A stretch of 57,291 nucleotides of DNA from Candidatus Uhrbacteria bacterium (GCA_016209345.1 JACQWH010000029.1:1-57291); one strand, 5' to 3'; positions 36,044 to 52,798 are shown, counted from the first letter of the stretch. Numbers and translations: made by a program. Notes: generated by a model not told the origin, from the letters alone.

Positions 36044-36760
36044 CTACCCGTGCGCGAAGGTAAGCGCGTATATGTCGCCAGCCCCGCCATGTTTCAATGC
36101 GCGTGCCGCTTCCTGCAGCGTTGCGCCGGTCGTATAAACATCGTCTATCAATACTATATCAAATCCGCGAACGCTTTCGGGTTTTATGCACGAAAATGCG
36201 CCGCTCATATTTACCCGACGGTCTTGGCGAGAACGTTCGGTTTGCGGAGATGTCGGTCGGATGCGAACAAGCACGTCGCTCACGCAGACAATGCCTGCGC
36301 GGCTTGAAAACTCGCGAGCGAGAAGCTCTGCCTGGTTGAATCCACGTTCCCGCTCTCGAGAAGGATGGAGCGGAATGGGAACACACAGCGCGCAAGAGGC
36401 GCTGCCAAGCCCGCTCCATACCTGCGCCATGAACGATCCAAGGGCAGGCGCGCTCTTTGTGACAAAGTCGTATTTTAACGAATGTACCATGCGCGCGACA
36501 CGCGCATCTGCATACTGAAAGGCGGCAACGCACTGGAGGAGCGCCGAATCATGGGTGCATCGCGGACAAAAAAATCCGCGCCAAAATGGCGCGGCGCACT
36601 CCGGACATCGGGCATTGGAATGAAATACGAGCGAGCGAGCGCAAGAAACGCATACCCACGCGCCTTCCCGTCCGCAACCGGTGCATTGGGGAGGAAATAT
36701 CAGATCAACCACACCGTCCAAAGCGCTGATAAAAAACCGCCTTATCCCCCCTGATTTCAT
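36044..36760 (-). CDS. comFC: ComF family protein (ComFC-like phosphoribosyltransferase)
   Basis: N-terminal double zinc ribbon (CTGCG..CVSC, CPEC..CPRC) plus a PRTase motif (VLIDDVYTTGATL). Confidence 0.8.
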   Translation of the reverse strand: MKSGGIRRFFISALDGVVDLIFPPQCTGCGREGAWVCVSCARSLVFHSNARCPECAAPFWRGFFCPRCTHDSALLQCVAAFQYADARVARMVHSLKYDFVTKSAPALGSFMAQVWSGLGSASCALCVPIPLHPSRERERGFNQAELLAREFSSRAGIVCVSDVLVRIRPTSPQTERSRQDRRVNMSGAFSCIKPESVRGFDIVLIDDVYTTGATLQEAARALKHGGAGDIYALTFAHG

Positions 36761-36797
36761 ACGTGTATGATTCTGACACCTGGCACCTGAGCCGGCA

Positions 36798-37412
36798 TCA
36801 CTGCCAATATGCGCCGTCCACGATCCATGCAGTGTCTTCCTTTACCAATTTTATAACGATGTCCTGATTATATACGCGGGCATTCGTACTGGTTCCAATA
36901 AGCTCTTTGCGCTGGGTTGCCACTTTCATCTCCGCAATCCCTTTCGCATCGTCAAATATCGAAAGCGTATACTGCAACGACTTGGTCGTCACGCCGTGGT
37001 ACACCGTCTGAAACGTTTTCCTTTTCTGCTCATCAATTTGTTTCTGCGCCCATGCCTTCATGCCGTCCGACATTACCGGCAAAAGCTCTGAAAGGTTTTC
37101 CAGATTCCCCTGGTTCGAGTAGCTGCCAAACCGTTCGACAAACGGCAATACCAAAGAAACCACTTCATTCCCCGGCTTTGCGGAGACGGACGCGACGCCG
37201 GTGTTTGGCGGCGTCAGCACGGCTTGCGTCGTCTCAATTTTTTCGGTACCCCCCGACACTGGCAGGGGTGCCGGCTGTTCGCCGACCAGTTGCTGCCCTT
37301 CCTGCCCCGATTGTTTTTTAAAAAATCCAATAACGGCGATGGAAGAAAATACCACCAACAACACAACGACTATGCCCAGCCCGGCAAGAATAATTTTAAG
37401 ACGTAATGTCAT
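36798..37412 (-). CDS. Membrane-anchored hypothetical protein (position and topology compatible with a VirB8-like component)
   Basis: 204 aa, with an N-terminal TM helix, a linker, and a compact ~130-aa C-terminal domain. Lies directly downstream of the VirB4-like gene. The VirB8 analogy is inference from topology only. Confidence 0.55.
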   Translation of the reverse strand: MTLRLKIILAGLGIVVVLLVVFSSIAVIGFFKKQSGQEGQQLVGEQPAPLPVSGGTEKIETTQAVLTPPNTGVASVSAKPGNEVVSLVLPFVERFGSYSNQGNLENLSELLPVMSDGMKAWAQKQIDEQKRKTFQTVYHGVTTKSLQYTLSIFDDAKGIAEMKVATQRKELIGTSTNARVYNQDIVIKLVKEDTAWIVDGAYWQ

Positions 37413-37415
37413 TTC

Positions 37416-37450
37416 TTAGGGGTTAGGGGTTAGGGGTTAGGGGTTAGGGG
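37416..37450. repeat. (TTAGGGG)x5 tandem heptamer
   Basis: Five perfect units. The sense strand (CCCCTAA)n supplies the last codons and the stop of the VirB4-like gene (..QTPNP-stop). Confidence 0.9.
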
Positions 37451-40400
37451 TCTGCCTCTTCTCATCTTCAAACTCCTTCTTTGCCGCCTCTATTTCCAGG
37501 AGTTGGCGCGGATCGGTGGTGATAAGCTGGTCTTCGGAATACGATGCAACCACCTTGATGGCAACATGTTTTGACCCGGCAAAGAAAATCCCTTCGCCCG
37601 GCCCTCCTTCTAATAATAGATACTTCTCACCCTCTGTCAATAAGAAGGTCTTTTGTACCGCATCGATCGCTGCCGATGATTGTTTGAGCAGAAGTTGAAT
37701 GGCCGAATTTGTCAGGATGGCGCGGCCGTATTGCGAGTTGAGAAAATCATTAACGTCCTGCGTAATGGTCGTCACTCCCAGATAATATTTGCGGCACCGC
37801 TTGGCAAGCGCAAAAATAAATCTGGCTGAGTCCTCATGCTGCATGAGCCACCACGCCTCGTCGATGACCAAAATCCTGCGCTTGATTTGAGATCGCACGA
37901 CATTCCAGATGTAGTTGATGATGGTGTAGATTGCGATAGGGCGCAGCTCGTCTTCCAAGTCGCGCACGGAGAACACGACAAGCTGGTTTTTTGTCTCGAC
38001 ATTCGTCGGCTTATTGAGCAGCCCCGCAAACGTCCCTTCGGTATATTTTTTCAGCTTTCCGGAAAGTCCCGCGCCGCCCTCCATGCCATCGAGCACATCC
38101 TGCAAATCGGTCAGTGTTGGGGGCTCAACGCCGGCGGACAGATCGGTTTGCGGCGTAATGTCTTTCTTCGCGTAGGCCTCCAGGAGCGCGCGATCAATAG
38201 TCGAATCCTCTTCTTGAGAAAACGCTCCCAGCATCAGCCGCATCAGCCCCTTGAGCGTAATGACCGCACTGCGAATAATGTCGGCGGTCGATACTTGCTC
38301 GCCAACCGGCCGCGGCAGATCAAACGGATTGATGCGACTTGTCGAGGAAAGAGATATGTTGACATAGGTACCCCCCACCGCATCGCAAAGATGCTTATAT
38401 TCGCGCTCCGGGTCTATCACCATAATCTCGGTTCCCATCATCATCGAGCGTAAAATTTCCAATTTTATGGCAAACGAGTTGTGTACAAAAAGTCCGCCGT
38501 GTCCTGCAAGAAACACTTCATTGTCGACGGTAAGATCGTACACGTACCGATCGGTATTTTTTATTCTTTTTATTGACGCTATTGGATCCCATATCAGATC
38601 GGCATCTGCAAGATTCTTCAGCTTTGCAATGAGCGCCTTCACGCGAGGAAGGCGAGACGCAATGCGCTGGTATTCGGATAATACATGGTGCGCAGCACTG
38701 CGCAACCGGCCGTATCGCATGTCGCCCCTCTCGCAAAGCCCCGTACGAAGAGAGCGATCGAAATCCTTCATCGAAAGGTTAAGCTGTCGAAATCCATAAT
38801 GAACAGCGTGCTTTACTTGTTCAAAATCTATGCTGTTGTACGAACTATATGACCACGCCCTCAATACATTTGTCGCGTACGGTGATACCCTCTGCTGCTT
38901 TATGTTGTTCCAGGTATGCCCCATCTCTTTCCAAAGAATGCCGTTTGTATTCTTATCGCAAACCCCCATGCCGATAACGGATGACATGTGGGGAAGCGCG
39001 GCTAACACCTCAAGCTCGTCTCTCAATACCTCAAAACGCCGCACCGCCTCATTCATCTGATCAATGACGGCATGGAGCTTCTCGCGCGATGGCTGATACG
39101 ACCCGTTTTTCAGCTCAATACAGTCCTGCATGCCGCGCAGATGAGATGGCAAAAGTTCATAGAGCTCCTGAAAAACGGTTTGGACGGGAATGGTGTCACT
39201 ATTTGTGTTGCTCTTCAAACCGAGAAGCCGCTTCAGCTTTGTATTCTTGCGTTGTGTGACAAATCCTATCGACTCAGCGTAGCGTGAAAGGTTTTCTTGG
39301 CCTGAAAGCGATAGCTGCCAATATGTTCTTCGCGTCTTCCTTGCGGTGTTGGTTGCATATTTATTTTTCTTCGACAAACGAACATGAATACCAAAACGAA
39401 GAAATACATATGCGAGATCGGAAACAAGCGCTTTTGATTTTGAAGTGGCGGTGACGGCATGGTTCTCGGCACACCCGTCTCCTTCAAAATAGGCCTTGAG
39501 AAATTCTGACAGTATGGACGATGACGCCCCAAACAATACTCCGGGAATTCGTTTGTCCGCTGATGTTTTTCCAATACCAAGCGCTTTAATATATTCCACG
39601 ATTACCCGACCGTGAATAACAAATGAGCCATCATCCTTGCGACGATAAAAAGAAAATCCTAGAGTGTTCAGACAATGGATAATATCGCTAACCACCGGTT
39701 TGTCCTCGTTTGAAATAAGAATATACCGTTCACGAATCGCGCCTTCACTCACAATATACCCCATCAATCGAGCTAATTCTGCCGTGAGATGCATAATGGG
39801 CGGCAGTGATGTCCCCTTCAAGCTGGTTGTCTTTGAACACAACCGAACTTCGGAATAGACGGCATGCGGATCAATGCCAAGATACGCAAGTATTTTCGAG
39901 AAATACCCAAGCGGAATCAGGCGACCGGTCCTATAGTTGTACCGGTAGCGATCAAAACGAGGATCGATGATCGCCCCTGCAAGGCGCGCGTAGTTCCTGG
40001 CTAGTACATACTGCCCGCCATCTATGTAGATTCTGCTATTATTCTCCAGCACTGCATATATGTCTTGCGTCGTGGTCGGATGTTCCGACTCCGACAACTC
40101 TCGTGCGAGAGGAATTGATTCGCCCGCGGAAATATCGGCACTCTTGTCTGCAACGACGACTCCATTGCGCAACACGAGCATATTATGGTCGCCCGTCACA
40201 GTAATTTCGCGCCCGCTCTTCATGGTAAACACGAAGAGATCGTCCGGCGCTTCTTTCCGAGCGGCGATGCTCACCGGGCTCCATTCGCCTTTTAATTCTT
40301 TATTAAAAGAATAGACCTGAATACCCGGATCAACGACACCTTCAAGATCATCATCGATCTTCTCAAAAACATGCTTTCTGGCGAGCGCGTCGATGGCAGG

Positions 40401-41306
40401 ACCGATCTGAACGAGCTTAATAGCACCGTCGCTATCCTTCATTAAAACCGGGGAAGATGATACTATGGACTTTCCTGCGCCGCTCGTTGCGAACACGACC
40501 TCGTTCGCGTTTTGCATGCTGAACCGGTCAAAGAGAATCAAGCTGTTATTGTGGCGATTGATGCCGTACAAAATGCCGTTGTCAGACGTGAGATCCGAAG
40601 AAATGAACGGAAACGCGGCAGCGGCAGGAGAGGTGTTCATATTAAATCCTATTGCCACCTCGTCGTTGCATAATGGCAATGTTGAGTTGAACCCCTGTTC
40701 CGCCTGGTAATAAACCCGCTTGGTGAAAATAAGTTTCGACCCGAACAGCCCCTCAATGTCTTCGGTGAGTTTGTCCAGCTCCTCAAGCGAGTTTGCAAGC
40801 AGCGTCATGTACACGCCGACCGTGAAAAAGTGCTCAATGCCCTGCGTGAGATCGTCACGCAAGCGCTCCATGTCGCGCAATGCCGTTTCCGCCATCGGAT
40901 CGCGCGGCTTTCCCTTTTCTTGTCCCGATGATATTTCCGCTTCAACCCTTCCCACTTTATTCCGCAGTTGTTTGAGAACAAGGGGAGTGCCGAGCGGTGC
41001 GAAAAAAATCGAGATGTCAAACGAGGCGGCGTAATTAATGATTGGCGCAAACCACCCGACATTGATATATCGAGGATACCCGATGACAAACACGGTTCGC
41101 GCGTATTTCGCGCCGACGCGCACGTACGACGGCTGTACCTCGAATGACGCGGGGCTGATTAAATCTTTCACGGCAACAAGTCCGCGGCGGTAAGCAAGCT
41201 CCTCTGCGATTGTCTGCTTTTGCTCCTCTTCTTTTTTCTGCGCAAGAACTTTCTTCTCTTGGGTCGGAGCTTTTTTTACCGCTTTTGCAATGGGTCGAAA
41301 GGCCAT
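37437..41306 (-). CDS. virB4: VirB4/TrbE-like T4SS ATPase interrupted by an intein
   Basis: Walker A ATSGAGK|S is split by the insert. Walker B RRILVIDEAWWLM. Also a RKYYLGVTTITQD motif and a VirB4-type region upstream (TVFVIGYPRYINVGWF). Confidence 0.85.
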   Translation of the reverse strand: MAFRPIAKAVKKAPTQEKKVLAQKKEEEQKQTIAEELAYRRGLVAVKDLISPASFEVQPSYVRVGAKYARTVFVIGYPRYINVGWFAPIINYAASFDISIFFAPLGTPLVLKQLRNKVGRVEAEISSGQEKGKPRDPMAETALRDMERLRDDLTQGIEHFFTVGVYMTLLANSLEELDKLTEDIEGLFGSKLIFTKRVYYQAEQGFNSTLPLCNDEVAIGFNMNTSPAAAAFPFISSDLTSDNGILYGINRHNNSLILFDRFSMQNANEVVFATSGAGKSIVSSSPVLMKDSDGAIKLVQIGPAIDALARKHVFEKIDDDLEGVVDPGIQVYSFNKELKGEWSPVSIAARKEAPDDLFVFTMKSGREITVTGDHNMLVLRNGVVVADKSADISAGESIPLARELSESEHPTTTQDIYAVLENNSRIYIDGGQYVLARNYARLAGAIIDPRFDRYRYNYRTGRLIPLGYFSKILAYLGIDPHAVYSEVRLCSKTTSLKGTSLPPIMHLTAELARLMGYIVSEGAIRERYILISNEDKPVVSDIIHCLNTLGFSFYRRKDDGSFVIHGRVIVEYIKALGIGKTSADKRIPGVLFGASSSILSEFLKAYFEGDGCAENHAVTATSKSKALVSDLAYVFLRFGIHVRLSKKNKYATNTARKTRRTYWQLSLSGQENLSRYAESIGFVTQRKNTKLKRLLGLKSNTNSDTIPVQTVFQELYELLPSHLRGMQDCIELKNGSYQPSREKLHAVIDQMNEAVRRFEVLRDELEVLAALPHMSSVIGMGVCDKNTNGILWKEMGHTWNNIKQQRVSPYATNVLRAWSYSSYNSIDFEQVKHAVHYGFRQLNLSMKDFDRSLRTGLCERGDMRYGRLRSAAHHVLSEYQRIASRLPRVKALIAKLKNLADADLIWDPIASIKRIKNTDRYVYDLTVDNEVFLAGHGGLFVHNSFAIKLEILRSMMMGTEIMVIDPEREYKHLCDAVGGTYVNISLSSTSRINPFDLPRPVGEQVSTADIIRSAVITLKGLMRLMLGAFSQEEDSTIDRALLEAYAKKDITPQTDLSAGVEPPTLTDLQDVLDGMEGGAGLSGKLKKYTEGTFAGLLNKPTNVETKNQLVVFSVRDLEDELRPIAIYTIINYIWNVVRSQIKRRILVIDEAWWLMQHEDSARFIFALAKRCRKYYLGVTTITQDVNDFLNSQYGRAILTNSAIQLLLKQSSAAIDAVQKTFLLTEGEKYLLLEGGPGEGIFFAGSKHVAIKVVASYSEDQLITTDPRQLLEIEAAKKEFEDEKRQTPNP
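38478..40469 (-). mobile_element. 664-aa intein with LAGLIDADG homing endonuclease domain in the VirB4 P-loop
   Basis: Begins with Ser (SIVSSSPVLMKD...). Block B TVTGDHNML. LAGLIDADG motifs LMGYIVSEGAI and FLKAYFEGDGCA. Ends ...VFLAGHGGLFVHN, followed by a +1 Ser. Removal restores GAGKSFAIKL. Confidence 0.8.
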
Positions 41307-41393: not shown

Positions 41394-42113
41394 CTAGGAT
41401 AGGGGTACTTCTTCGTCTCCTTCTACCTGAAGATCACTCAGGGGCGCCATACGCTGATTGGATGATGTTTCAGGGTTATAGGTAGTATAGTAAAGTTCTA
41501 TGAGGGACTGCGTATCAAGGCGGACGGTGTTGAGCCCCATGCCGACAAGACCGCCGGCAACGTTGCCGATGCGCTGGTCGAGCATATGCTTACGTTTAAG
41601 AAATTGTTCGTTTTTCAAACGCAGCTCGCCTGCGGCAAAAAAGACCTCATAAAGTTGTTTGAAAAATCCTCGCTTCATATCCGTAGCCGGATCGTATGGA
41701 ATCACGGCATAAAACTTTTTATCCATAATATCACCAAGCTGAACAAGTTCGGCGACGAATTGCCGATAGTCGGCCATCTGCATTTTAAGCAGATCGTTTG
41801 TCTGCTGCGCTTCGAGTTGCTCAAGACGCTTAATATATGTTGTGATGTCGTACTTGCGCGACTGGACCAGCACCTGGAGTGGGTAGTCGATGGTGTTGAG
41901 AAACTGCATATAGGACTGGATCGTCGCGTTCTGTTCGTCTTCCGACTTCAGAAAAAAATTGATGGAAGACACCAGCAGCACGCCGCGCAGGGTGCCGTCT
42001 TTGAGAATGACGGTATCGTTTTTTATCTCGGCAATTTCAAGATGTTTCTGCGTTGATGGCGTACCGCGATTCGCTTTCGGATTGGGCTCTGTTGTTTGTT
42101 TTTTCTTGGGCAT
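41394..42113 (-). CDS. Protein resembling the N-terminal domain of Gram-positive-type VirB4 (possible split-off VirB4 N-domain)
   Basis: HLEIAEIKNDTVILKDGTLRGVLLVSSINFFLKSEDEQNATIQSYMQFLNTIDYPLQVLVQSRK resembles the first domain of PrgJ/TcpF-type VirB4 proteins (from memory). 239 aa plus 625 aa of spliced VirB4 gives a typical VirB4 length. Confidence 0.5.
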   Translation of the reverse strand: MPKKKQTTEPNPKANRGTPSTQKHLEIAEIKNDTVILKDGTLRGVLLVSSINFFLKSEDEQNATIQSYMQFLNTIDYPLQVLVQSRKYDITTYIKRLEQLEAQQTNDLLKMQMADYRQFVAELVQLGDIMDKKFYAVIPYDPATDMKRGFFKQLYEVFFAAGELRLKNEQFLKRKHMLDQRIGNVAGGLVGMGLNTVRLDTQSLIELYYTTYNPETSSNQRMAPLSDLQVEGDEEVPLS

Positions 42114-42117
42114 AGAT

Positions 42118-42158
42118 CAGGTGTCAGGTTGCAGGTGTCAGGTTGCAGGTGTCAGGTT
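42118..42158. repeat. (CAGGTGTCAGGTTG) x ~2.9 tandem 14-mer
   Basis: Direct tandem copies. The sense strand encodes the C-terminal KPDTCNLTPAT-stop of the four-helix-bundle gene. Confidence 0.85.
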
Positions 42159-42516
42159 TATTACCGAGTTTTGTTATGAGGGTATTCAAAATTTTCATAA
42201 CCTCTATGAGTATTGTGTCAACATCATTATACTGGAGGTTCACACCAAAAGGCAATTTCTTTACGACGGCTATCTGTGTTTGCAGTTCAGCGCCCGATCC
42301 ATATGAAATATAAAGAAAGTGCCTATAATCCTTCCGCGTACCCCTCATACTTCCCTCAGCTATGTTTGACGGAATAGAAACTGCCGCTCGTTTCATTTGA
42401 GATGCTAGTCCGAAAACCTCTTCCCGGGGAAAATGACTCGTAAGTTCGTAGATTGCCAGAACCAGCTCAATACCCTTCTTCCATACTATCAAATCCTGAA
42501 ATGACTGTACTTTCAT
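42124..42516 (-). CDS. Four-helix-bundle protein (23S rRNA intervening-sequence protein family), copy 1
   Basis: FQDLIVWKKGIELVLAIYELTSHFPREEVFGLASQMKRAAVSIPSNIAEG...GSGAELQTQ matches the signature of this family. Confidence 0.8.
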   Translation of the reverse strand: MKVQSFQDLIVWKKGIELVLAIYELTSHFPREEVFGLASQMKRAAVSIPSNIAEGSMRGTRKDYRHFLYISYGSGAELQTQIAVVKKLPFGVNLQYNDVDTILIEVMKILNTLITKLGNKPDTCNLTPAT

Positions 42517-42529
42517 AAATTAATTTTTC

Positions 42530-42655
42530 TGATCACTGAAACCTGATCACTGAAACCTGATCACTGAAACCTGATCACTGAAACCTGATCACTGAAACCT
42601 GATCACTGAAACCTGATCACTGAAACCTGATCACTGAAACCTGATCACTGAAACC
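42530..42655. repeat. (TGATCACTGAAACC)x9 perfect tandem 14-mer
   Basis: 126 nt made of nine identical units. Each unit contains the palindrome TGATCA (with GATC) and TGA triplets on both strands. Confidence 0.95.
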
Positions 42656-43110
42656 TAAAACAACTCCGTCTCCTTCTCCTTTGCTTCACCCATATATGCC
42701 CCTCCGGTATCGACAATAAGCGCGAGATCGGCGAGCCGATGCCCGCTCACGCGCGGCGGTAAGGGCGGCGGGGTTTCCTTCAAGGCCTTTTCCTCCTTCG
42801 TCTCTTTTGCCGTGTGAATGACGCGGCGCACATCCTTTCTCCATACGCGCAGTGTCGGCCGGCTTGCCGTGCGCAGCGTATTGAGGAGAAAAAAATGGAA
42901 GGGCTGTCCGTTGATCCGCACAAACCCAAGCACGCCCGCGCATCCCCCGACAAGAATGGCGACAAAAATGAAGGCGGTCAGGTCTGTTGTTTTGTACGCA
43001 ACGAACAACAGCGCGCAGGCAACGAGGATGATCACAAACTGCCGAACGGTAATCGGCCCGAGTATGCGGTCTTCATTTTCAATAAATTGCGGAACGGTTA
43101 TTTGGTCCAT
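42655..43110 (-). CDS. PrgI-family (VirB3-like) T4SS membrane protein
   Basis: The start was moved to MDQITVPQFIENEDRILGPITVRQF, followed by two TM helices, the pattern typical of PrgI-family proteins. Confidence 0.65.
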   Translation of the reverse strand: MDQITVPQFIENEDRILGPITVRQFVIILVACALLFVAYKTTDLTAFIFVAILVGGCAGVLGFVRINGQPFHFFLLNTLRTASRPTLRVWRKDVRRVIHTAKETKEEKALKETPPPLPPRVSGHRLADLALIVDTGGAYMGEAKEKETELF

Positions 43111-43135
43111 GTCAACAAGAATTAAGAAACAAGAA

Positions 43136-43531: not shown

Positions 43532-43555
43532 GATTCTTGATTCCTTTCTGCAAAT

Positions 43556-43586: not shown

Positions 43587-46049
43587 CTAGAACCGTAGCT
43601 TTTCATTCAACTCCAACAGCGCGTCAAACTCTTCCGCCGTGAGATATTCTTTTCCGGCTGTTTTTCTTTCTTCAACCAGCTTGTTCATATCCACGCCGAT
43701 ATTGATTTGCCCAATCTCAAGATAGAGCGCGTAGACATCGCTTTCCTTCCATGCCTTTATCGCTTCTGCCTTTTTCGTCAGCGATTGTTTTTCAAGCGCC
43801 TGAATTTTTTCATAGATACGCTTTACCGACTCTTTCGGGTCTTGGGAAAGCCGGCGAAAATCCTTAATGGTAAGCGCGCGAATCTCATCAATCACGCCAA
43901 CGAGCCGCGGCGCTGCTTTCACATCCGCAACTTTCGTTTTCGGGGCGCCCGCCGTCGGCGTTGCGCGAACCGTCACGGGAATGGGAATAGGTTTCAGGTT
44001 ATAGGTTTCAGGTTTCAGGGGGGGTGCAGTACTAGGGGCTAGGGTAGAGGGTTTAGGGGTTAGTTGGGGACCAACAGGGGTTGCGGGTGGGGTCTGTACC
44101 TCCCCTTGATTCGTGATTCTTGATTCTTGATTCTGTCCCGTGATTCGTGATTCTTGATTCTGCCCCTGCCCTCCTCTTGCCTCCCCTTGATTCGTAATTC
44201 GTGGTTCTTGATTCGTGATTCCTGTTTCCTGTTTCTCCGTCTTTTCCAGCGATAATTTTTCGTTTTTCATTTTTCGTTTTGCGCTTGACTGCACCAGCAT
44301 CGGCACGCCATCCACTTCTTTAATGACCATCACTGGCTCAGGTTTCAGGTTATAGGTTTGAGGTTTCAGGGGTGGCTCAGGAACAGGTTGCAGGTCATAG
44401 GTTTCAGGTTTCAGGGATGGTGTGGCTGACCCCATTTCTGCCATTGATTCGTGATTCGTGATTCTTGATTCCTGCTTCTGTGCCCCCCCTTGATTCGTGA
44501 TTCTTGATTCCTGATTCTGCCCCGTGATTCGTGATTCCTGCTTCTGTGCCCCCCCTTGATTCGTGATTCGTGATTCTTGATTCTGCCCCGTGATTCTTGA
44601 TTCTTGATTCTGCCCCGTGATTCCTGAATCGTAAAGCTGTTCTAACCCCTTCCCCGCCACAATCGCCTGCGCTGCCACGTTCGCCTCTTTCAAAAGTTTC
44701 TCGGCATCCTCAGGAGACAATCCGGCGCCGCCATCGGCAAGCGCCGCTTTCAGCCGTTCGCTCGTATCAATACTGTTGCGAATATTGCGCACGCGCGATG
44801 AAAGAATCGGCTTTACCCGGCTAGTGACATCGTCGGAAAGTTTTACCGCAGCCGCCTCAAGAATATGTGTGATAACCCTGTCATAATCAACCACCAAGGC
44901 AGGTTGTAGGTTGTAGGTTGTAGGTTGTAGTAAGGGCTCGGGGTGTACCGACGCCACGGCAGCAACGTCATTGCGGGGAAGCGCAGCGACCGCAGGGAGA
45001 GATCCCTCTTTCTCTTGATTCGTAATTCGTGATTCTTGATTCTGTCCCGTGATTCTTGATTCTTGATTCTGTCCCGTGATTCTTGATTCTTGATTCTGTC
45101 CCGTGATTCTTGATTCTTGATTCTGTTCCTCCCCCGGCACCCCCGGCAGCTCTCGCGCGGTTTTCGCCTCAAGTTCCGCCAAGTGATATGGGATAACCAT
45201 CCAGTGTTCCGGCGATGTCTTCTGAAAACTTTCCGGAAAATTTTTCAACACCGTAAATGTTTCAAACAGCCGCCGCAATGCCTCTTTGTCCTTTTCCGAT
45301 AGCTTCTTTGCGTTCGCGTTATCTGTCATGTACTGCGCGATTTTAATGCTTGACGCAGTCCCGCCGGAAAATCCCAAAAGATCCTGAATCCAATTGCCAA
45401 CGGTCGGCGGCTGCCCGTCTTTTTCCCCAACGCGCATCGTCTCTTTGCCAATATGCTCCTCGTTTGCGTAGAGCGATTTAAGAAGCGTATCAACGAATCC
45501 CTCGATGTTTGAAATGAGAAAAATGATGGTGTTGTTCAGTGACACTTTGTACGGATCGTCGGGGGCATAAAAATGACAGGTAAGATTTTTCTCAAAAAGC
45601 GCCGCCATGTCTACCGCTCCCTTTTCTCTATTGGCATCAAGATCTTCAATCTCTGCCGCTTTTTCGCGCAACGCCTCATTTATCGTTTTCAACAACAATG
45701 GCATGGTCTTGCTCTCTTCAAGCGCTTTTTCCGGATCACCGTATTTTTTTTGAAAATACTCAATGTGATTCCCAAAAAAATCAATAAATGGCAGAACGAG
45801 ATTAATAAAAAATGTCCGCTCGAGTGCTGTTGCTTGCTCCTCCGAAATGCCCAAACGCTGCAAAAATATTCCCCTAAGATCTTCAGGCCGTATATTTTTT
45901 TTGAACAATTCCTCAATGATATCATTGAGAGCATCCTGCTCCTTTGTAAAAAGATTGAGCTGCGACTTTACCGAATCTATCCAATAATAAAACTCCGGCG
46001 ACAGTAAAATCGATCGAATATATTGTGGTATGTTTTCAAGATATGACAT
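43587..46049 (-). CDS. 820-aa protein with globular ends and long low-complexity repeat linkers
   Basis: Long ORF in operon orientation. The N-terminal ~290 aa and C-terminal ~120 aa look globular. The middle is made of GQNQESRIT, PETYNLKP and P/T/A-rich repeats. Confidence 0.6.
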   Translation of the reverse strand: MSYLENIPQYIRSILLSPEFYYWIDSVKSQLNLFTKEQDALNDIIEELFKKNIRPEDLRGIFLQRLGISEEQATALERTFFINLVLPFIDFFGNHIEYFQKKYGDPEKALEESKTMPLLLKTINEALREKAAEIEDLDANREKGAVDMAALFEKNLTCHFYAPDDPYKVSLNNTIIFLISNIEGFVDTLLKSLYANEEHIGKETMRVGEKDGQPPTVGNWIQDLLGFSGGTASSIKIAQYMTDNANAKKLSEKDKEALRRLFETFTVLKNFPESFQKTSPEHWMVIPYHLAELEAKTARELPGVPGEEQNQESRITGQNQESRITGQNQESRITGQNQESRITNQEKEGSLPAVAALPRNDVAAVASVHPEPLLQPTTYNLQPALVVDYDRVITHILEAAAVKLSDDVTSRVKPILSSRVRNIRNSIDTSERLKAALADGGAGLSPEDAEKLLKEANVAAQAIVAGKGLEQLYDSGITGQNQESRITGQNQESRITNQGGAQKQESRITGQNQESRITNQGGAQKQESRITNHESMAEMGSATPSLKPETYDLQPVPEPPLKPQTYNLKPEPVMVIKEVDGVPMLVQSSAKRKMKNEKLSLEKTEKQETGITNQEPRITNQGEARGGQGQNQESRITGQNQESRITNQGEVQTPPATPVGPQLTPKPSTLAPSTAPPLKPETYNLKPIPIPVTVRATPTAGAPKTKVADVKAAPRLVGVIDEIRALTIKDFRRLSQDPKESVKRIYEKIQALEKQSLTKKAEAIKAWKESDVYALYLEIGQINIGVDMNKLVEERKTAGKEYLTAEEFDALLELNEKLRF
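45029..45129. repeat. 27-nt tandem repeat (GTGATTCTTGATTCTTGATTCTGTCCC) x3 plus a shortened unit
   Basis: Units at 45049..45075 and 45076..45102 are identical, and 45103..45129 has one mismatch. The sense strand encodes (TGQNQESRI)n. Confidence 0.9.
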
Positions 46050-46058
46050 AGCATTACA

Positions 46059-49000
46059 TTAACTGCCAAGAGATCTCTGCGCAACATCTTGAATGTCAGT
46101 ACTTGCCGTGCCAAACGTTCCTGCCCTCGCACGATCCAGTACTTCCTGGGTAAATGCCGTAATATTCGAAGATGCCCTTCCCTTATTAATATAGTTCTCA
46201 GCGCCACCACGTACAAGCCGTGAAAATGCACCAAGATTAAGTCGGGGAACTCTTAGCTGGACTTGACTTGTACGATTTGTGAGTGTTTCCCGAGTCATAC
46301 CCGCCAATACGCTCGAGTTCGCTGAGTCGGTCAGAATGCCTTCTATGGCAAGCCCGTGGGTAGCAGGATTGAATGCACCGGGAATCGCACGGCCATTATT
46401 ATCCATTGCAAATAGTGCGTTAACGGCTCCATCCCCCGCAGCGCCAGAAAATTGACGTAAATCACGCGCAAAAACTGCATTGAAATCAACTCCTCCGCTC
46501 GCATTTCTCGTAACTGCAGTTCCGGCGGCTAATTGAGCTTCGAGACGAGTCCTGTACACGTCAAGCATACGATTGCGTACATTCGCCGAAACCTTTCTAG
46601 TATAATCACCAAGCTTGTCAACTGTTGGGTCAGCTAGATTATCAATAAAATCATTGTTCACGTCGGTTTCTCGAATTTGGGCTGGCGCCAGCTCTTCTGT
46701 GCGCAATAATTCCTGCCACTGTGCGTTATTCAGCCGTGAAAGCGTCTCACGGCGCACGTCGGCATCGGCATCTTTCAAAAAAGGGCCCATCTTATTGACA
46801 TCGGGGTGCATCAAATTTGCAGGAGAAAAATTCGGCGCCGCATTTGCTCCGGTAATATCAGCAATTTTAATATCTTTTGCGGTAACTTGTCCTGTTTTAA
46901 ATAACTGCTGCCACTGTTCATCGGTCAATGCTCGCATCATGCGAGTCCGAACATCTGCGGTCACTTTCTTAAGATATTCGCCGAGCCGATCAACTGTTGG
47001 ATCTGCAAGGGCTCCTATAAGCGCTTGAGCCTGGGCGTTGTCATTCGGATTTCCCGGGACCGTAATATCTGCCATTTTAATATCCTCCGGTTTCCACTTT
47101 CCCGAGCGAAATGATTCAATTCGTTGATCGTGTGTCATGGGGCGCAAGGCGTCTTGCGGGCGTTTAGTTTTGATAAGCCGATCAAACGACTCTACGGTCC
47201 CTGACATAGCATTATGCCCCTGAACCATGCGTCGTATTTCGTCCGCCGGACGATCGCGCAATCCATCTTCTTCTATCAATGATTTTAATAGCCCCATTCT
47301 TTCTTCATCGGTATCGGCATGTCCCGGTATTACTCCTGTATACATTTCCCATTTTTCTTCATTTGATTTGCCCGCATGTTTCTTTGCAATTGCGTCAACG
47401 GCATTTGCCTGTGCTTCATTTGCATCAACTTTCTGTACCTCCCCCCAGCGCCCCAACCTGCTTAATTGTGATGGTCCAACAACCGCGGCAGCCATCAATC
47501 CGCCCGGAAGTGCACCAGCGGCAGCTCCGCCCAAACCAGCAACACCCGACCCCGCCCAACCAAGAGCAGCAGTACGAACCGATGCACCAAAAAATCCCGC
47601 AAACCCTCTCCGCAGCGTTGCTAAAAGCCCTCGAAACTCTGCCGCTTGCACAAGATTATCATGGTGATCGGCAGAAGCATTATGCTGTTCAATGATTTGA
47701 TTATTTTGATCGATTCGTGTTTGTAGGCGCGTTGCCTCATTTTCATGAGTTGTCGCAAGTGGAATGTTGCCTTGACCACGTGCCTCCTGCGCAAGTCGAA
47801 TATGCTCATCGCGTTCACGCTCATCAGCTTGAACCGTATTCTGTCGTTGTACGACGTCGGCGCGCAGCGTTCCCGCCGCCTGACGATTTGTATCTGCCTC
47901 AAGACTATTGTTCCTTTTCTGCTCCTCAATGCGGGTACGAAAATCCCTCCCAAACCCAAGCTCAAAATGTCCGCCGGTCAATGCGCCGGTACTCGTTCGA
48001 ATAACATTATCAAGTCCGTGTTCAACTTGCCTGTACCCTCGAGCAACCGCCTGACCCGCTTCTGTCTGCATGGCCCCGCGAATTAATTGCTGTGCACCCT
48101 TACGAGGTGCGGACGCGACAACACCAATCGCGCTTTGCACCCGATCGGTAAGCCGTTCAACGCGCTCCTTTCTTCTCTTCTCCCACCTACTCCCCAACCC
48201 TCCCAGTACTTCGCGACCGGTACGAAGCGGATTAAACGGTCCGCGTTTTCCTTGCATATAGTCCTTAAATCCGCTAATCGCCCCGCCGGCCATACTCCCG
48301 CCAACCGAGGAAAGCTGCTGGGCAGCCATCAGTGATCCTATCAACAGACCAATGCCAAGGATGTATCCGGCCATACCGCCAATGGTTGAAATACCGCTCT
48401 GTCCAACGTCTGCCAGCTCTCCGGCTAAAAACTTTCTATCCTCAAAATGAACGCCGAGCTCTGTAGCGATATAGATATCGTTTGAATCGTTGATACCATT
48501 TCCAGCAACTGCAACGATTGTAAAGGAAAGCCAGAGAAAAAATGCCATGACCGGCCCCACCAAAAGATAATTGATAAACTGATCCCACCATTTTGAAGCA
48601 TACCCCCTATCTTGGGGAAGCGACATAAGAAAAAATGCGGCGGGTGAAAGAATGATGAGAAACCACAACGCAATAATACGGATAACAAGAATTGCTACCA
48701 TGATGGCGATGACAATGAGTGCCAAACTGACAAAAATAAGCGCGAGAACCATCCCCATTAAAGCTGACTCGGCTTGCACCTGTTTCGCCTCTCCGGATCC
48801 GCTAAAAAGCACCATTGACAACAGCCGATTGAGTCCGATAAGCACGGCAAAATTACCGCCGCCGGCTTGTGAAAACGCCCCGACAAATGTCATCATTACT
48901 ATTTGGGCAAAGTCGATAAACAGTCCACAAATTGTCTTGGAAAAATTTACAAGAATTGCCGCGGCGAGAAATTTCGGCAATGTTTGAGAATAGCTGTATT

Positions 49001-49367
49001 GCTGCTGTTGTAAAATGGTGCCTAGTGCTATTGCCAGGAGCACCACGACAAAAAACATATTGACCACATCGCGAACCACCACCCATCCGGTCGTCACGGC
49101 TGTTGACGCAAGAAACTGGTTATACTGCGCTATGGCAAGAAGCAGGTACATCAGATTGACAACCAGTCCGCCGATGAGCTGGACGAGCAACGCGATGAAC
49201 CCACCCAAAACCATGCCAAACGCCCGCGCAGTAGCATCACCAACCCAAGAAAAAATCCCCGCACTGGCAGAAGTGCGAAATCCAAAAACGCCAACAATAA
49301 TAATGAGCACAACAATAACACTCGTCGTGCTGACAAGCCGCTTGTTCTGTAAAAATTTGTGCATCAC
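46059..49367 (-). CDS. VirB6/TrbL-like polytopic membrane protein with a long soluble C-terminal region
   Basis: The first ~400 aa carry many TM helices. The C-terminal ~650 aa are hydrophilic and hold three ~50-aa internal repeats (TVDRLGEYLKKVTADVRTRM.., DVNKMGPFLKDADADVRRET.., TVDKLGDYTRKVSANVRNRM..). Confidence 0.6.
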   Translation of the reverse strand: MMHKFLQNKRLVSTTSVIVVLIIIVGVFGFRTSASAGIFSWVGDATARAFGMVLGGFIALLVQLIGGLVVNLMYLLLAIAQYNQFLASTAVTTGWVVVRDVVNMFFVVVLLAIALGTILQQQQYSYSQTLPKFLAAAILVNFSKTICGLFIDFAQIVMMTFVGAFSQAGGGNFAVLIGLNRLLSMVLFSGSGEAKQVQAESALMGMVLALIFVSLALIVIAIMVAILVIRIIALWFLIILSPAAFFLMSLPQDRGYASKWWDQFINYLLVGPVMAFFLWLSFTIVAVAGNGINDSNDIYIATELGVHFEDRKFLAGELADVGQSGISTIGGMAGYILGIGLLIGSLMAAQQLSSVGGSMAGGAISGFKDYMQGKRGPFNPLRTGREVLGGLGSRWEKRRKERVERLTDRVQSAIGVVASAPRKGAQQLIRGAMQTEAGQAVARGYRQVEHGLDNVIRTSTGALTGGHFELGFGRDFRTRIEEQKRNNSLEADTNRQAAGTLRADVVQRQNTVQADERERDEHIRLAQEARGQGNIPLATTHENEATRLQTRIDQNNQIIEQHNASADHHDNLVQAAEFRGLLATLRRGFAGFFGASVRTAALGWAGSGVAGLGGAAAGALPGGLMAAAVVGPSQLSRLGRWGEVQKVDANEAQANAVDAIAKKHAGKSNEEKWEMYTGVIPGHADTDEERMGLLKSLIEEDGLRDRPADEIRRMVQGHNAMSGTVESFDRLIKTKRPQDALRPMTHDQRIESFRSGKWKPEDIKMADITVPGNPNDNAQAQALIGALADPTVDRLGEYLKKVTADVRTRMMRALTDEQWQQLFKTGQVTAKDIKIADITGANAAPNFSPANLMHPDVNKMGPFLKDADADVRRETLSRLNNAQWQELLRTEELAPAQIRETDVNNDFIDNLADPTVDKLGDYTRKVSANVRNRMLDVYRTRLEAQLAAGTAVTRNASGGVDFNAVFARDLRQFSGAAGDGAVNALFAMDNNGRAIPGAFNPATHGLAIEGILTDSANSSVLAGMTRETLTNRTSQVQLRVPRLNLGAFSRLVRGGAENYINKGRASSNITAFTQEVLDRARAGTFGTASTDIQDVAQRSLGS

Positions 49368-49399: not shown

Positions 49400-49484
49400 C
49401 AGGGAAAATGCAAGGGGAACAGTATGTATTCACTATTTTTCAAATAAAACTCTGCCAAAAATTGTAAAAGTATGGACTTAAATT

Positions 49485-51089
49485 TTACAGCCCCCATAAT
49501 CCCAACTCATAATCGGTCGTTACTTCTGCGTCAATCAATGCCTGCCGTTCTACTATTGGCACGGCACTTCTCCCTAATCGTGCGCGTATAATAGGAATAA
49601 GATACATATTCCGAAATGTAGAGTCGTGTAATGTTTTTAAGTCAACGAGTTGATATACATACGAAATGTTTGGCATTGTACGTATTTTTAATACCTCCGC
49701 CCTCATTGTTTTATATGAATCAATACCCTCAAGTAGCGAATGACAGAGCTGCTGAAATAAAAGCGGTCGTACCCGGATCCTTAGAAAGGATCCAAATTGT
49801 GGAACACTCATACGAGAAATTCTTTCAAACAGCGTATCGACTGTATGCTGATGGCGCAGAGTATCTGCTGAATATCGCGTGATATCGGCTCCATTCCCTG
49901 CGGCTCGCGCCTTATCAAGATTTTTTTTTGCCGTTTCGAGTTCTGCGCGAGCGGTGCTTAAAGTAGCTCTATCTGCGATGGTAAGAGCCGCGAATGGCTC
50001 AAAAACCTCTTTCTGAACAGCATCTACAAAACCCTCAATATTCTTCAATCGATCGGGAAGCCGATCATAGCGCCCCTGACGTTCAGCAAACCGCCTGCGA
50101 CTTTCATTGGGAAATCGTATCTTCGGTTGCGGTGTATCGTCGAGCAAATCAAGGAGACGACTTTGTTCGGGATCAATCGCCTCTACCTGTCCAACAAGAG
50201 TATTGTAACCACTTGTACGAGTACCCGGTCGTGATAGCACGCGCGCCTGTTCTTCAAATGATGCCGTCTGCTCTCCCATAAGCTCACTCCCTCTCTCTCC
50301 GGCAAACTGTCGCGCCACCCTATCAACACCTGGATCAATACTTCCGGGCGCAACTAGATTAAGTCGGAGCGCTTCGTATACCTTTGGTCGAACGCCTGAA
50401 CCTGCCTGCGTGCCGAGCAGGGTGTTGATCTGCGCCTGAAGCCCTGCATTGCCAGTCACTGCCACAGGATCAATAGGAATCTGTTCAAGCGTCATATCGT
50501 GCATGATCTTTGAAATTCCGGCGAACATATCCGCAAACGTAGCTGCATCTGCCGGATCCGGTCCCCCGCCGGGATTCCGCGGATCAGGACTCAGCAAATC
50601 GGCTATTCGCCTCTCGATAATTGTTTTTAAATAATTTTGAAGTCGACCATTATATCGCGGGGCTGCTTTGCTTTCAAAAAAATTCGTAAATCTTCGCATA
50701 CCATAGCGATCGGGATCTTCATATATTTGATTAACCAGCTCATAGTTACCAGCATCCAATGCTTTTTTAAAGTCGGTGATCACTTCGTAAAAACGATCAC
50801 CCTCTTTTTTCCCTTCTGGAATCATCGACATGACCGCTCGACGGATAAGATCTTCATCAATGTTCACATGACGACCATGCAGCGTTGCCTTCTGCAACTC
50901 ATGAATCACAAGCTCGTTGATAAGATCTGTCTGCCGCACCTCCTTTTCTCGATCAAGCCGACACGCAAGCTGACCCAGCGCTTCTTTATTTTCCTTTTTC
51001 AATTTTTGGAAAATCTCCCCGGTAATTCTACCCTCATTTGTCGTCGGAGTATACCGCGGCATGCTCAGTTTATCTGGTGAAAGAATCAT
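49485..51089 (-). CDS. Hypothetical soluble protein (534 aa)
   Basis: Long ORF co-directional with the operon. No TM segment or recognisable motif. Confidence 0.6.
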   Translation of the reverse strand: MILSPDKLSMPRYTPTTNEGRITGEIFQKLKKENKEALGQLACRLDREKEVRQTDLINELVIHELQKATLHGRHVNIDEDLIRRAVMSMIPEGKKEGDRFYEVITDFKKALDAGNYELVNQIYEDPDRYGMRRFTNFFESKAAPRYNGRLQNYLKTIIERRIADLLSPDPRNPGGGPDPADAATFADMFAGISKIMHDMTLEQIPIDPVAVTGNAGLQAQINTLLGTQAGSGVRPKVYEALRLNLVAPGSIDPGVDRVARQFAGERGSELMGEQTASFEEQARVLSRPGTRTSGYNTLVGQVEAIDPEQSRLLDLLDDTPQPKIRFPNESRRRFAERQGRYDRLPDRLKNIEGFVDAVQKEVFEPFAALTIADRATLSTARAELETAKKNLDKARAAGNGADITRYSADTLRHQHTVDTLFERISRMSVPQFGSFLRIRVRPLLFQQLCHSLLEGIDSYKTMRAEVLKIRTMPNISYVYQLVDLKTLHDSTFRNMYLIPIIRARLGRSAVPIVERQALIDAEVTTDYELGLWGL

Positions 51090-51131
51090 ATGATAAATTT
51101 ATTCTTCAAATGTAATGATGTTTGCAGCGGA

Positions 51132-52586
51132 TTACTCAGGAAACAAAGAATCGTATGCATCATTGAGGCGGCTGACATTGTCTGCGTATGTTTTTACGGC
51201 ATCATAATATACGCGAACGGCGTTTGTATAATCCGTTGCGAATGTTTTTTGCATAGCACTATCAGGTGAATGCTCTCCCTGTAAAAAATTTACTGACCGC
51301 TCCTCATATAAAGATGCCACCTTTCTTTCAGAGTCCAGAATGCGCATACGTGCCTCTTCGATGATCCCGTGGTCGCCGTTTTCACCTTTCAATATATCAA
51401 TAAGATACGCCGTACGACGCCGTTCGTCATCGGGATTAATAATCGCTTTCAGGGCATGTAACTCATTTTGTTTTTGCGCAATGTTATCGAACAATTCAAT
51501 TGCTTGCCACCGTGCGTTTAAGAACAACGCGTCAGCTTTTTCTTTAAGCTCATCATGTAGAGATTGCTTGCGCTCCTGTTTCGCTCCGCCTCCCGAATAT
51601 CTGTTAACTATAGCAATCAACTGCCGCGCATCATCCTGGAGAGAGCGCGTCATTTCTTTGAACGTACCGGCGAGCTGATTCGCCGAAGCACTATCATTCT
51701 GTTCGAGCCGTTCACGCGCTTTATTTCTATAATATCGCGTAAACGCGGCCTTTTTATCGAGTGCCATATAGAGTTCTTCGAGGTGCTCCCTGGTGCTTGG
51801 GGTCATACGCCCAAACTCTTCTCCATCAAGCCGCATGCGTATATCCGCAACCAAATTCCTGCACCCTGCAAATGCGATTTCAGTTTGAAAAATATTGTCA
51901 TGAATTTGATCTGCGCGTTGCTCTGGAGTTTTTTTTGGGACTCCGATGTCAATGATCTCAGAAATACTTTTTCGAGTGCGTGCCGCTTTTTGGTCAATTG
52001 ATTCCTCCTGATTTTCATTTCCAACAATTGATTCTGCGCGATCTTCCAGTTTAAAAAAATCTCCGTGGAGCCGAACCAAGCGCAAGCGCAATTTTGCCAA
52101 TGTACCCAAATAAATATCATCAAGTATACCCATAAGATCGGGCCGCACCTTATGGGAGAGCAGCTTCTTGCATTTTTCATAAACGTCTGCCAATATCGCT
52201 TCCGTCATTTCGCACTTTTTGTTTTGTTCCGCATACTCTCGGCCAAACAGCTCGCCCACACTGGCCAGATCACCCAAAACCATCCGCTCTTCATGCGGTC
52301 GTTGTCCCGCCATAAACTCCCCGACAACCTCATCCAGTATTTCATGGTCAATCCAATCCATTTCATGAACATTGCCATACTGCCTCTGAAAAATATCACG
52401 ACTTTTCGAAATAAAATCCTCTATTTGTTTTAGATCTTGAAATTTTCCTCGGTAAACTTCATCGGCAACAAGACCATCGAATATCATTTTTATTTTTTGA
52501 TATTTGTACGCAATGTTTGGATCATCCATACTTCTCATCTTCCACGTACCAACTCTTAAACTGTCGCGATCTGATAATATCTTCAT
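51132..52586 (-). CDS. Hypothetical soluble, helix-rich protein (484 aa)
   Basis: Long ORF whose start overlaps the upstream small ORF by 4 nt (ATGA). No recognisable motif. Confidence 0.6.
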   Translation of the reverse strand: MKILSDRDSLRVGTWKMRSMDDPNIAYKYQKIKMIFDGLVADEVYRGKFQDLKQIEDFISKSRDIFQRQYGNVHEMDWIDHEILDEVVGEFMAGQRPHEERMVLGDLASVGELFGREYAEQNKKCEMTEAILADVYEKCKKLLSHKVRPDLMGILDDIYLGTLAKLRLRLVRLHGDFFKLEDRAESIVGNENQEESIDQKAARTRKSISEIIDIGVPKKTPEQRADQIHDNIFQTEIAFAGCRNLVADIRMRLDGEEFGRMTPSTREHLEELYMALDKKAAFTRYYRNKARERLEQNDSASANQLAGTFKEMTRSLQDDARQLIAIVNRYSGGGAKQERKQSLHDELKEKADALFLNARWQAIELFDNIAQKQNELHALKAIINPDDERRRTAYLIDILKGENGDHGIIEEARMRILDSERKVASLYEERSVNFLQGEHSPDSAMQKTFATDYTNAVRVYYDAVKTYADNVSRLNDAYDSLFPE

Positions 52587-52798
52587 ATATGATTGCGCAA
52601 TGATGATCGAACCTTCTTTGCCGCGGACTCATCTGCTTTGTTCTGCAGTGCGGCAATATCCTGCATATATGTTTTCTTAAGCGCGCGAATATCCGCATCA
52701 TATGCTTTTGCGGCGTCTTTCAGTGCGTCTAATAATTGCCTTTCGGTCATGTGCCCGGTTTTCATAGAAAAATTGGTGATAATGTATGATAATGGCAA
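52583..52798 (-). CDS. Small coiled-coil protein (start uncertain)
   Basis: 71-aa ORF translationally coupled to the 484-aa gene. Alternative starts at 52765 or 52750. Confidence 0.45.
   Translation of the reverse strand: MPLSYIITNFSMKTGHMTERQLLDALKDAAKAYDADIRALKKTYMQDIAALQNKADESAAKKVRSSLRNHI

Follow-up and report, generated by a model that had tools for sequence, protein, structure and literature searches.

A probable chromosomal type IV secretion locus of an Uhrbacteria genome, with a conserved seven-gene core and fast-diverging flanking genes

A 57,291-nucleotide contig of Candidatus Uhrbacteria bacterium (GCA_016209345.1, JACQWH010000029.1:1-57291; this whole stretch is hereafter the window) carries, between positions 36044 and 52798, a run of minus-strand genes that an initial annotation had read as a machine resembling a type IV secretion system (T4SS), invaded by selfish elements and ending in comFC. 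Family scans of the window's proteins, empty-site alleles in relatives and the domains of ComF bear out these points, and we conclude that the locus is probably a chromosomal Patescibacteria T4SS, derived from MPF-FATA systems and showing the gene arrangement of the class ABY1. The conserved machine consists of seven genes, which encode an extended VirB6, an uncharacterized protein of 820 residues (p820), PrgI/VirB3, TrsD, the VirB4 ATPase, a VirB8-like protein of 204 residues (p204) and ComF.

All twelve open reading frames (ORFs) described for positions 36044-52798 are present, every one on the minus strand, with intergenic distances of -4 to 138 bp. The run does not begin at 52798 as had been proposed, since a HepT/MNT toxin-antitoxin pair continues it on the same strand only 8 bp upstream, and the share of coding capacity that cannot be assigned, put at more than half, measures ~47%. 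The claim of a single operon would be compatible with the short spacing and with the terminator scan, in which terminator-like sites showed no excess over shuffles; promoter counts were likewise not clearly above shuffles, and as evidence on operon structure both scans were set aside as uninformative. Because the contig also holds housekeeping genes (pheS/pheT, clpB, radA, recG, a Mur ligase and tRNAs), the locus is judged to be chromosomal. No scanned ORF of the 57-kb window matched a relaxase, VirD4-type/type IV coupling protein (T4CP) or integrase family, in line with the annotation for relaxase and VirD4, and no VirB7, VirB9 or VirB10 occurs in the window's component set, which is of the monoderm type. 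Rfam recovered two tRNAs only in the window, both outside the T4SS locus.

A core conserved in order and sequence

The locus was compared with 85 others, namely five close metagenomic relatives (L001-L005) and 80 loci from a one-genome-per-species scan with the spliced VirB4, whose six-frame ORFs, including 10 kb of flank, were searched with the window proteins. The 80 species-level loci, in which VirB4 is 64-77% identical to that of the window, are labeled Uhr-, Magasanik-, Falkow- or Buchananbacteria or, generically, Patescibacteria, a set that we take to be the GTDB class ABY1. Almost everywhere in the 85 loci, the genes for VirB6, p820, PrgI, TrsD, VirB4, p204 and ComF lie on a single strand in this single order. 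Since the order is retained in the five close relatives and recurs in ~80 more distant loci, the arrangement is not due to chance, and conservation of gene order thus supports the initial annotation. A TrsD homologue was found in 83/85 loci, PrgI in 79/85, p820 in 77/85 (always between VirB6 and PrgI), p204 in 70/85 (directly after VirB4), ComF in 55/85 and VirB6 in 54/85, the lower counts reflecting mostly loci cut off by a contig end or by the 10-kb flank limit. In 46 of the 66 informative loci, comF adjoins the VirB4/VirB8-like genes on their downstream side and on the same strand.

The proteins of the run diverge at very different rates. Identity to the window is, for L001 and L088 respectively, 92% and 88% for TrsD, 91-94% and 93% for the VirB4 exteins, 87% and 80% for PrgI, 76% and 69% for p204, 73% and 59% for the N-terminal ~770-800 residues of VirB6, and 58% and 54% for ComF, while p820 is 49% identical in L001 and, in L088, 53% over its N-terminal part and 82% over its C-terminal domain. 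The distal tail of VirB6 is 33% identical in L001 and not matched in L088, and the 534-residue protein encoded directly upstream of VirB6 (p534) drops from 68% in L001 to 28% in L088, where VirB4 is 93% identical. Base composition follows the same division: G+C content at third codon positions (GC3) is 0.55-0.65 in the core genes vs 0.37-0.44 in p534, the two genes upstream of it (p484, at 0.41, and p71), the VirB6 tail and the four-helix-bundle (IVP) genes, and the VirB4 intein is intermediate at 0.51 vs 0.62 for the exteins. The idea that all twelve genes form one system stands for the seven-gene core but not for the upstream genes, p534 being limited to one clade and p71 and p484 missing from other carriers of p534.

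Components of the machine

The VirB4 precursor (37437..41306, minus strand) is a 1289-aa protein made up of a 625-aa extein and a 664-aa intein, with exteins 91-96% identical to the VirB4 of L001, which has no intein. The match to the NCBIfam model conju_CD1110, whose prototype is CTn2, exceeds the cutoff (E = 4e-97; 326.3 bits, cutoff 325), Pfam P-loop_TraG matches at 9e-25, the Walker A motif would be regenerated on splicing and the Walker B motif reads VIDEAWW. By this profile match, VirB4 is putatively assigned to the FATA/Patescibacteria lineage. Across its stop codon and the spacer before p204 lies a perfect array of five TTAGGGG units (37416-37451), which encodes the last VirB4 residues (TPNP and the stop), unlike the C terminus in L001.

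As for the two small genes that precede it, the 151-aa PrgI/VirB3-like membrane protein (42655..43110, minus strand) matches Pfam PrgI at 2.8e-10 (41 bits, cutoff 27) and contains a hydrophobic hairpin. The initial annotation had recognized the family correctly but not the start, which by homology with L001 and L004 is the ATG at 43110 rather than the TTG at 43152 that opens a 165-aa ORF. The 239-aa TrsD/TraC-like protein (41394..42113, minus strand) had been described as VirB4-N-domain-like, and it would be a remote relative of that domain: it matches NCBIfam TrsD at E = 2e-5 and, over residues 102-220, the N-terminal part of the VirB4_plasma model at 1e-8, both scores far below the cutoffs. 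No pairwise similarity was detected to the N-terminal domain of the window's own VirB4, while homologues bear a precomputed Pfam TraC-like match and the position beside virB4 is invariant in 83/85 loci.

The 1102-aa VirB6-like protein (46059..49367, minus strand) consists of a polytopic transmembrane domain (~48228-49367), with at least seven hydrophobic segments in residues 8-350, and a 722-aa tail (46059-48227) bearing ~3 copies of a 65-aa repeat. The repeat-bearing tail predicted earlier is thus real, and the VirB6/TrbL assignment is a weak but consistent call: TrbL is the sole Pfam family found among 30 homologues, matching 6/30 (best 2e-5), and a profile of the transmembrane domain matched nothing in the Protein Data Bank (PDB). 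Tails from 24 genomes have a mean identity of 13% and matched no Pfam family.

p204 (36798..37412, minus strand), which the initial annotation had placed as a VirB8 analog from its position, is bitopic, with a transmembrane helix (residues 3-34), a disordered stretch (35-80) and an NTF2-like domain (82-203). Sequence profiles (NCBIfam, and profile vs PDB) returned only noise and no family for it, so that fold comparison alone was informative. An AlphaFold2 model built on a 43-sequence alignment has a mean predicted local distance difference test score (pLDDT) of 84.7, rising above 90 in the alpha+beta domain, and a Foldseek search of the PDB with it placed CagV first (4.5e-6), followed by PrgL, TraE of pKM101, Agrobacterium tumefaciens VirB8 and TrwG. 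These top VirB8-family matches have E values of 4.5e-6 to 4e-4 and TM-scores of ~0.55-0.65 normalized to the target, and other NTF2-like proteins are interspersed lower in the ranking. Because p204 combines this modeled fold with a bitopic topology and a fixed place after VirB4, it is predicted to be a VirB8-like subunit. In a published survey of Patescibacteria (Quinonero-Coronel et al. 2025; PMC12102498), profiles recovered VirB8 homologues only ~50 times, 'nearly all' of them from ABY1, probably because sequence profiles alone miss proteins of the p204 type.

p820 (43587..46049, minus strand), noted earlier as a repeat-linker protein, has no transmembrane segment and is built of three helical domains, between which run disordered linkers made of repeats. 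In the AlphaFold2 model, the domains (residues 1-130, 385-470 and 715-820) reach pLDDT ~90 and the remainder stays below 50. The C-terminal domain is the universally conserved part of the protein, and p820 is a real, class-wide and unannotated component of the T4SS locus. Foldseek gave no match with E below 2 for the model, and a profile of the C-terminal domain (44 sequences) gave only noise against the PDB and Pfam; its location and architecture would suit a cytoplasmic adaptor or scaffold. The ESRITGQNQ/ESRITNQ repeats of the linkers (43987-45126) are in-frame heptanucleotide arrays, with the unit TGATTCG/CTTGATT on the plus strand, which also flanks the neighboring IVP pseudogene. These arrays are peculiar to this genome: the window p820 contains 12 copies of the ESRIT-type repeat vs 0-1 in ten homologues, whose linkers hold other repeat-derived peptides such as AVAALPRND. 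Repetitive DNA thus seems to collect in the disordered linkers.

The final gene of the run (36044..36760, minus strand) does encode ComFC, as annotated, with a double zinc ribbon (Pfam DZR_2, 1.8e-9; 37.7 bits, cutoff 27) and a phosphoribosyltransferase domain (Pribosyltran, 2.2e-6; 27.5 bits, cutoff 26.3), both above their cutoffs; against the full-length model TIGR00201 comF, E is 1.8e-27 with 96 bits vs a cutoff of 233. Of the terminator-like hairpins in the region, the strongest (36576-36598, minus strand), an 8-bp stem with 7 G-C pairs followed by a T-run, lies inside the zinc-ribbon coding part ~170 nt past the comF start, and may be a coincidental product of Cys, Pro and Arg codons.

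Insertions and variable genes

The intein (38478..40469, minus strand; residues 280-943 of the precursor) interrupts the Walker A motif of VirB4 (GAGK|S), and matches Pfam Intein_splicing (3.5e-15) and LAGLIDADG_3 (3.4e-19), in accordance with the intein-bearing ATPase of the initial annotation. Two LAGLIDADG motifs are visible. Set against the intein-free allele of L001, which reads uninterrupted as GAGKSFAIK, its boundaries are S280...HN943|S944, with an internal TGDH as the TxxH of block B. By these motifs and the empty allele, it would be a canonical class 1 intein with a homing endonuclease, and it is predicted to splice. It is present only in the window and in L004/L005, being absent from 80 other loci, and between the window and L004/L005 it is 80.5% identical, against 92.5% for the N-extein.

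The two four-helix-bundle genes, one of which had been called a pseudogene, both match Pfam 23S_rRNA_IVP. Cassette 1 (42117..42656, minus strand) holds an intact gene (42124-42516; 1.6e-34) and cassette 2 (43114..43543, minus strand) a broken one (43136-43531; 2e-29), which is a full-length 131-codon ORF with one in-frame TAG at 43274-43276. The site of cassette 1 measures 541 bp in the window vs a 9-bp spacer in L001, and that of cassette 2 474 bp vs 30 bp; in L004, the cassette 2 site is occupied by an NYN-domain gene, and in other ABY1 genomes IVP genes turn up in various spacers of the T4SS operon. Because relatives with empty sites exist, the intein and both IVP cassettes are recent selfish insertions.

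Cassette 1 is bounded by complementary 14-nt/7-nt tandem arrays (CTGATCACTGAAAC x9 and CAGGTGTCAGGTTG x3) that form 43-nt arms with 74% complementarity, while the 27-nt heptamer-array arms of cassette 2 (43119-43145 and 43517-43543) are 85% complementary. The arrays of cassette 1 pair in both the minimum free energy (MFE) and the centroid RNA folds, giving a terminal stem with the ORF inside it; folding of the whole cassettes gave z-scores that were not significant (-1.7 and -0.6), the terminal stem alone being consistent between MFE and centroid. Arrays of period 7, 14 or 21 lie within 150 nt of 6/16 IVP genes in other ABY1 loci, vs a baseline of 3.2%, and those flanking the IVP genes of L039, plus one pair in L072, are reverse-complementary as judged by eye only. 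This array-enclosed architecture is like that of 23S rRNA intervening sequences, here located in mRNA spacers, and our literature search found nothing on IVP genes with heptamer arrays.

At the upstream end of the run, p71 (52583..52798), a predicted coiled-coil protein of 71 aa, overlaps by 4 bp at its stop the start of p484 (51132..52586), a soluble protein of 484 aa, which is followed by p534 (49485..51089), also soluble, all three on the minus strand; neither p484 nor p534 has a transmembrane segment. p71, p484, p534, p820 and the VirB6 tail had no meaningful match in Pfam, NCBIfam, PADLOC or PHROGs. A weak tape-measure match of p71 was read as a coiled-coil artefact, and the notion that p484 and p534 are paralogues was dropped after BLASTP found nothing convincing. 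Homologues of p71 and p484 occur only in L001-L003 (48% and 52% identical, respectively, in L001) and are absent from the p534 carriers L004/L005, L087 and L088. The intein is common to the window and L004, the p71/p484 pair to the window and L001, and because of this incongruent distribution we suggest that the two move or recombine independently. In L001, a 44-codon ORF (8017-8151) between HepT and the p71/p484 pair duplicates the N terminus of the p534 homologue (55% identity), which suggests insertion of the pair into the 5' end of p534, or recombination there, with the duplicate left as a scar of this rearrangement.

For p534, exhaustive HMMER searching across 1.84 billion representatives yielded only four full-length clusters plus one N-terminal fragment of 44 aa, and in both L087 and L088, the two homologues with sufficient flanking DNA, the gene also sits directly upstream of VirB6. 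By its distribution and divergence, p534 is a first gene restricted to one clade and evolving very rapidly. Other ABY1 genomes usually encode unrelated, very large Cys-rich proteins at this position; this family, of 800 to >1250 aa, was seen directly upstream of VirB6 in L016 (2-4030), L060 (1-4080) and 17 further loci, and may be a T4SS-associated surface adhesin. Its members were rejected as relatives of p534, their profile hidden Markov model having matched no window ORF. HepT/MNT and AbiEii modules recur at the upstream edge of the operon in the clade, and also stand beside the window's pilin genes (window 52807-53633 and 19254-20251; L087 2813-3556; L088 4137-5026).

With these data, it is conceivable, if unlikely, that the core alone makes up one functional unit and that p71, p484 and p534 form a variable island beside toxin-antitoxin modules, unrelated to secretion. 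The patchy occurrence of p71/p484, the L001 scar, the toxin-antitoxin genes that always precede this region, its GC3 of ~0.40-0.44, as in HepT/MNT, and the wholly different content of this region across other ABY1 genomes would all suit such an island. Against it, homologues of p534, 28-41% identical, keep their place immediately before VirB6, which suggests selection for linkage, and the genes are closely spaced (42-117 bp) with no terminator-like site between them. On the reading of the locus as a Patescibacteria T4SS with variable flanks, p534 would be an accessory gene, or one for a substrate, that is specific to its clade and diverges rapidly, and p71/p484 a variable module restricted to the window and L001-L003.

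Neighboring genes, direction of transfer and known systems

Two plus-strand genes for putative VirB2-like pilins (16922..19145) lie 18 kb from the T4SS core, each encoding a near-identical 75-aa module, in which two hydrophobic helices are visible in the sequence, followed by unrelated C-terminal domains of ~200-250 aa. The initial annotation had called them pilin-hydrolase fusions; T4SS_pilin matches just below cutoff make the pilin half plausible, and for the hydrolase half no support emerged, the C-terminal domains matching no hydrolase family and nothing in the PDB. One of them shows a Cys...His pattern reminiscent of NlpC/CHAP peptidases, without family support. radA (20288-21685, plus strand) and recG (29191-31323, minus strand) were identified by their Pfam matches. 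In 40 loci with enough flank, genes within 10 kb of VirB4 were counted; recG (21 loci), radA (16), VirB2-like pilins (13) and a 411-aa protein (13) occur downstream of VirB4 and never upstream, and the window layout matches this recG/radA/pilin arrangement. The 411-aa protein (15484-16719, plus strand in the window), with faint beta-propeller matches only and strong conservation (E down to 1e-106), may be a further T4SS component not previously recognized. Within the stretch between comF and recG, a free-standing ORF (32142-33164, plus strand) with a weak helix-turn-helix and a LAGLIDADG-like domain is flanked by tRNA-Arg (31454-31527) and tRNA-Ser (33186-33276).

Following established T4SS biology, we infer that the intein would splice out, and that VirB4 hexamers would then act as a membrane-docked ATPase on VirB3, VirB6 and VirB8, which would build a conduit spanning the wall and the single membrane. 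The VirB2-like pilins would form an external filament contacting the host cell, the intein and the two four-helix-bundle cassettes being recent selfish passengers. The machine would move some macromolecule between epibiont and host; it would not run classical conjugation, because no relaxase or coupling protein is encoded nearby.

Several points weigh against this reading. The VirB6 assignment depends on a sub-threshold TrbL match (E = 0.0017; 18.6 bits, cutoff 25.9), the TrsD match scores 24 bits against a cutoff of 200, and the T4SS_pilin matches of the two pilins, at 3.6e-5 (24.2 bits) and 1.7e-4 (22.0), lie below the cutoff of 26.6. No VirB1-type hydrolase was identified among the window proteins. 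The placement of Uhrbacteria, and with it of the compared loci, in ABY1 is an assumption that follows GTDB. The relaxase and T4CP negative covers the 57-kb window, and a copy may lie elsewhere in the genome; for T4CP this makes the absence weak evidence, since in Patescibacteria these genes are usually remote from virB4 (PMC12102498). Southlakia epibionticum, a saccharibacterium from another class and the only relative tested genetically, requires its T4SS for epibiotic growth but not comEC, comF or dprA (Wang et al. 2023; PMC10633639); the essential role of the T4SS there cannot therefore go via the Com pathway.

As for the direction of transfer, we tentatively favor DNA import because of the tight linkage to comF, the looser one to recG and radA, and two relaxase-less precedents, ComB and Ced. 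ComB of Helicobacter pylori is a relaxase-less DNA importer that acts upstream of ComEC/ComFC. The archaeal Ced system is a T4SS-like DNA importer (PMC9905601). It is a good deal more speculative, and we think improbable, that the ABY1 block is a dedicated puller of DNA from the attached host, handing it to ComF and to recombination or salvage as a bacterial counterpart of Ced, with p820 replacing the coupling protein in substrate handling.

The locus might, conversely, be an effector T4SS that exports protein, delivering to the host, or exposing to it, the VirB6 tail, p534 and possibly also p484 and p71, with the comF adjacency merely inherited, a reading to which we give a limited chance, about the same as that of DNA import. 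The sharp divergence of p534 beside a nearly constant VirB4 would fit it, as would the fast divergence and low GC3 of p484, p71 and the VirB6 tail, which suit host-interaction proteins, the lack of transmembrane segments or family matches in all four, and the proposal by Wang et al. of protein export for the T4SS of Southlakia, in which the Com genes are dispensable (PMC10633639). However, neither secretion signals nor toxin domains or immunity genes were recognized, p534 is confined to one small clade while unrelated Cys-rich proteins hold its position in other ABY1 genomes, and the same-strand adjacency of ComF in 46/66 loci is tighter than casual synteny. That the locus is instead the transfer module of an integrative and conjugative element or a plasmid remnant, with relaxase, coupling protein and oriT outside the window, is very improbable: VirB4 does match the conjugative CD1110 (CTn2) family best, HepT/MNT and AbiEii modules flank the locus in the window and in relatives and T4CP genes are often far from virB4, but the synteny with comF, recG and radA in ~80 species at 64-77% VirB4 identity suits vertical inheritance, relaxase, integrase and T4CP were not found in 57 kb, and the Patescibacteria genomes surveyed hold 109 relaxases in all, 15 of them near virB4 (PMC12102498).

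Few machines besides the T4SSs of Patescibacteria have been shown to be indispensable to epibiotic life, and the present locus represents the ABY1 version cleanly and in fully intact form. Already in 2025, the set of components, the missing relaxase, the comF/recG/radA linkage in ABY1 and the import idea had been published (PMC12102498), so that the interpretation of the initial annotation agrees with current knowledge without exceeding it. What we add is the VirB8 fold of p204, the p820 family, the dichotomy of rates between core and variable genes, and insertions dated by empty sites, which refine the parts list of the published system and leave the current picture unchanged. Three leads follow: a VirB8-fold subunit mostly overlooked by profile searches; p820, a class-wide conserved subunit that structural and genetic work on the machine should take in; and the contrast between a slow core and very fast flanking genes (p534, the VirB6 tail), which are candidates for host-specific contacts or substrates.

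Comparison with known systems sets these features in context. P-loop inteins are common, and a few in VirB4 have been catalogued (Novikova et al. 2016; PMC4760082); that of the window resembles them in its insertion within Walker A, Ser1, TxxH, HN followed by Ser+1 and LAGLIDADG, and differs in its host lineage (Uhrbacteria), which is new, and in its narrow distribution, only two of the close relatives having it. VirB6 proteins with extensions are a recognized category (PMC12857230); like the Rickettsiales paralogues, that of the window combines a polytopic N-terminal domain with a very large hydrophilic C-terminal extension, but the tails in this class are unrelated to theirs in sequence, hypervariable (13% identity within the class) and part of a monoderm-type system. 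Ced and ComB share with the window a VirB4-type ATPase, what in the window are a putative VirB6-like protein and a putative VirB2-like pilin, the lack of relaxase and T4CP and an association with recombination or competence. This resemblance would be functional and architectural only: there is no family-level homology to Ced (window VirB4 scores 31 bits against the CedB model, cutoff 700), and ComB is of the diderm VirB type and includes VirB7, VirB9 and VirB10.

Closer are the MPF-FATA systems (Trs of pGO1/pSK41, Tra of pIP501, Prg of pCF10, CTn2 of Clostridioides difficile), in which TrsC-TrsD-TrsE corresponds to the VirB3, putative TrsD and VirB4 of the window, CD1110 is the best VirB4 model, PrgL/TraM are comparable to the VirB8-like NTF2 protein, and the set is likewise of the monoderm type, without VirB7, VirB9 and VirB10. 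In contrast to them, the window has no recognized relaxase, coupling protein or VirB1 hydrolase, possesses putative VirB2-like pilins, is chromosomal and vertically conserved, and inserts the extra cytoplasmic p820 between VirB6 and VirB3. Closest of all are the T4SSs of Patescibacteria themselves, whose VirB4 clade is related to MPF-FATA and which widely carry TrsD, PrgI/VirB3, VirB6 and arrays of VirB2-like pilins; their ABY1 loci hold comF, recG and radA, 'suggesting functional coordination', and the authors closed with the hypothesis that DNA or other macromolecules are imported from hosts (PMC12102498). The window shares with these systems (PMC12102498, PMC10633639) VirB4, PrgI/VirB3 and what in the window are putative TrsD, VirB6 and VirB2-like pilins, the chromosomal location, the lack of a relaxase or T4CP nearby and, as in ABY1, comF, recG and radA in the locus. 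To the systems described there, it adds the VirB4 intein and two IVP cassettes, p820 and p534, which were not described, and the predicted VirB8-fold protein that follows VirB4 in most of the ABY1 loci compared here.

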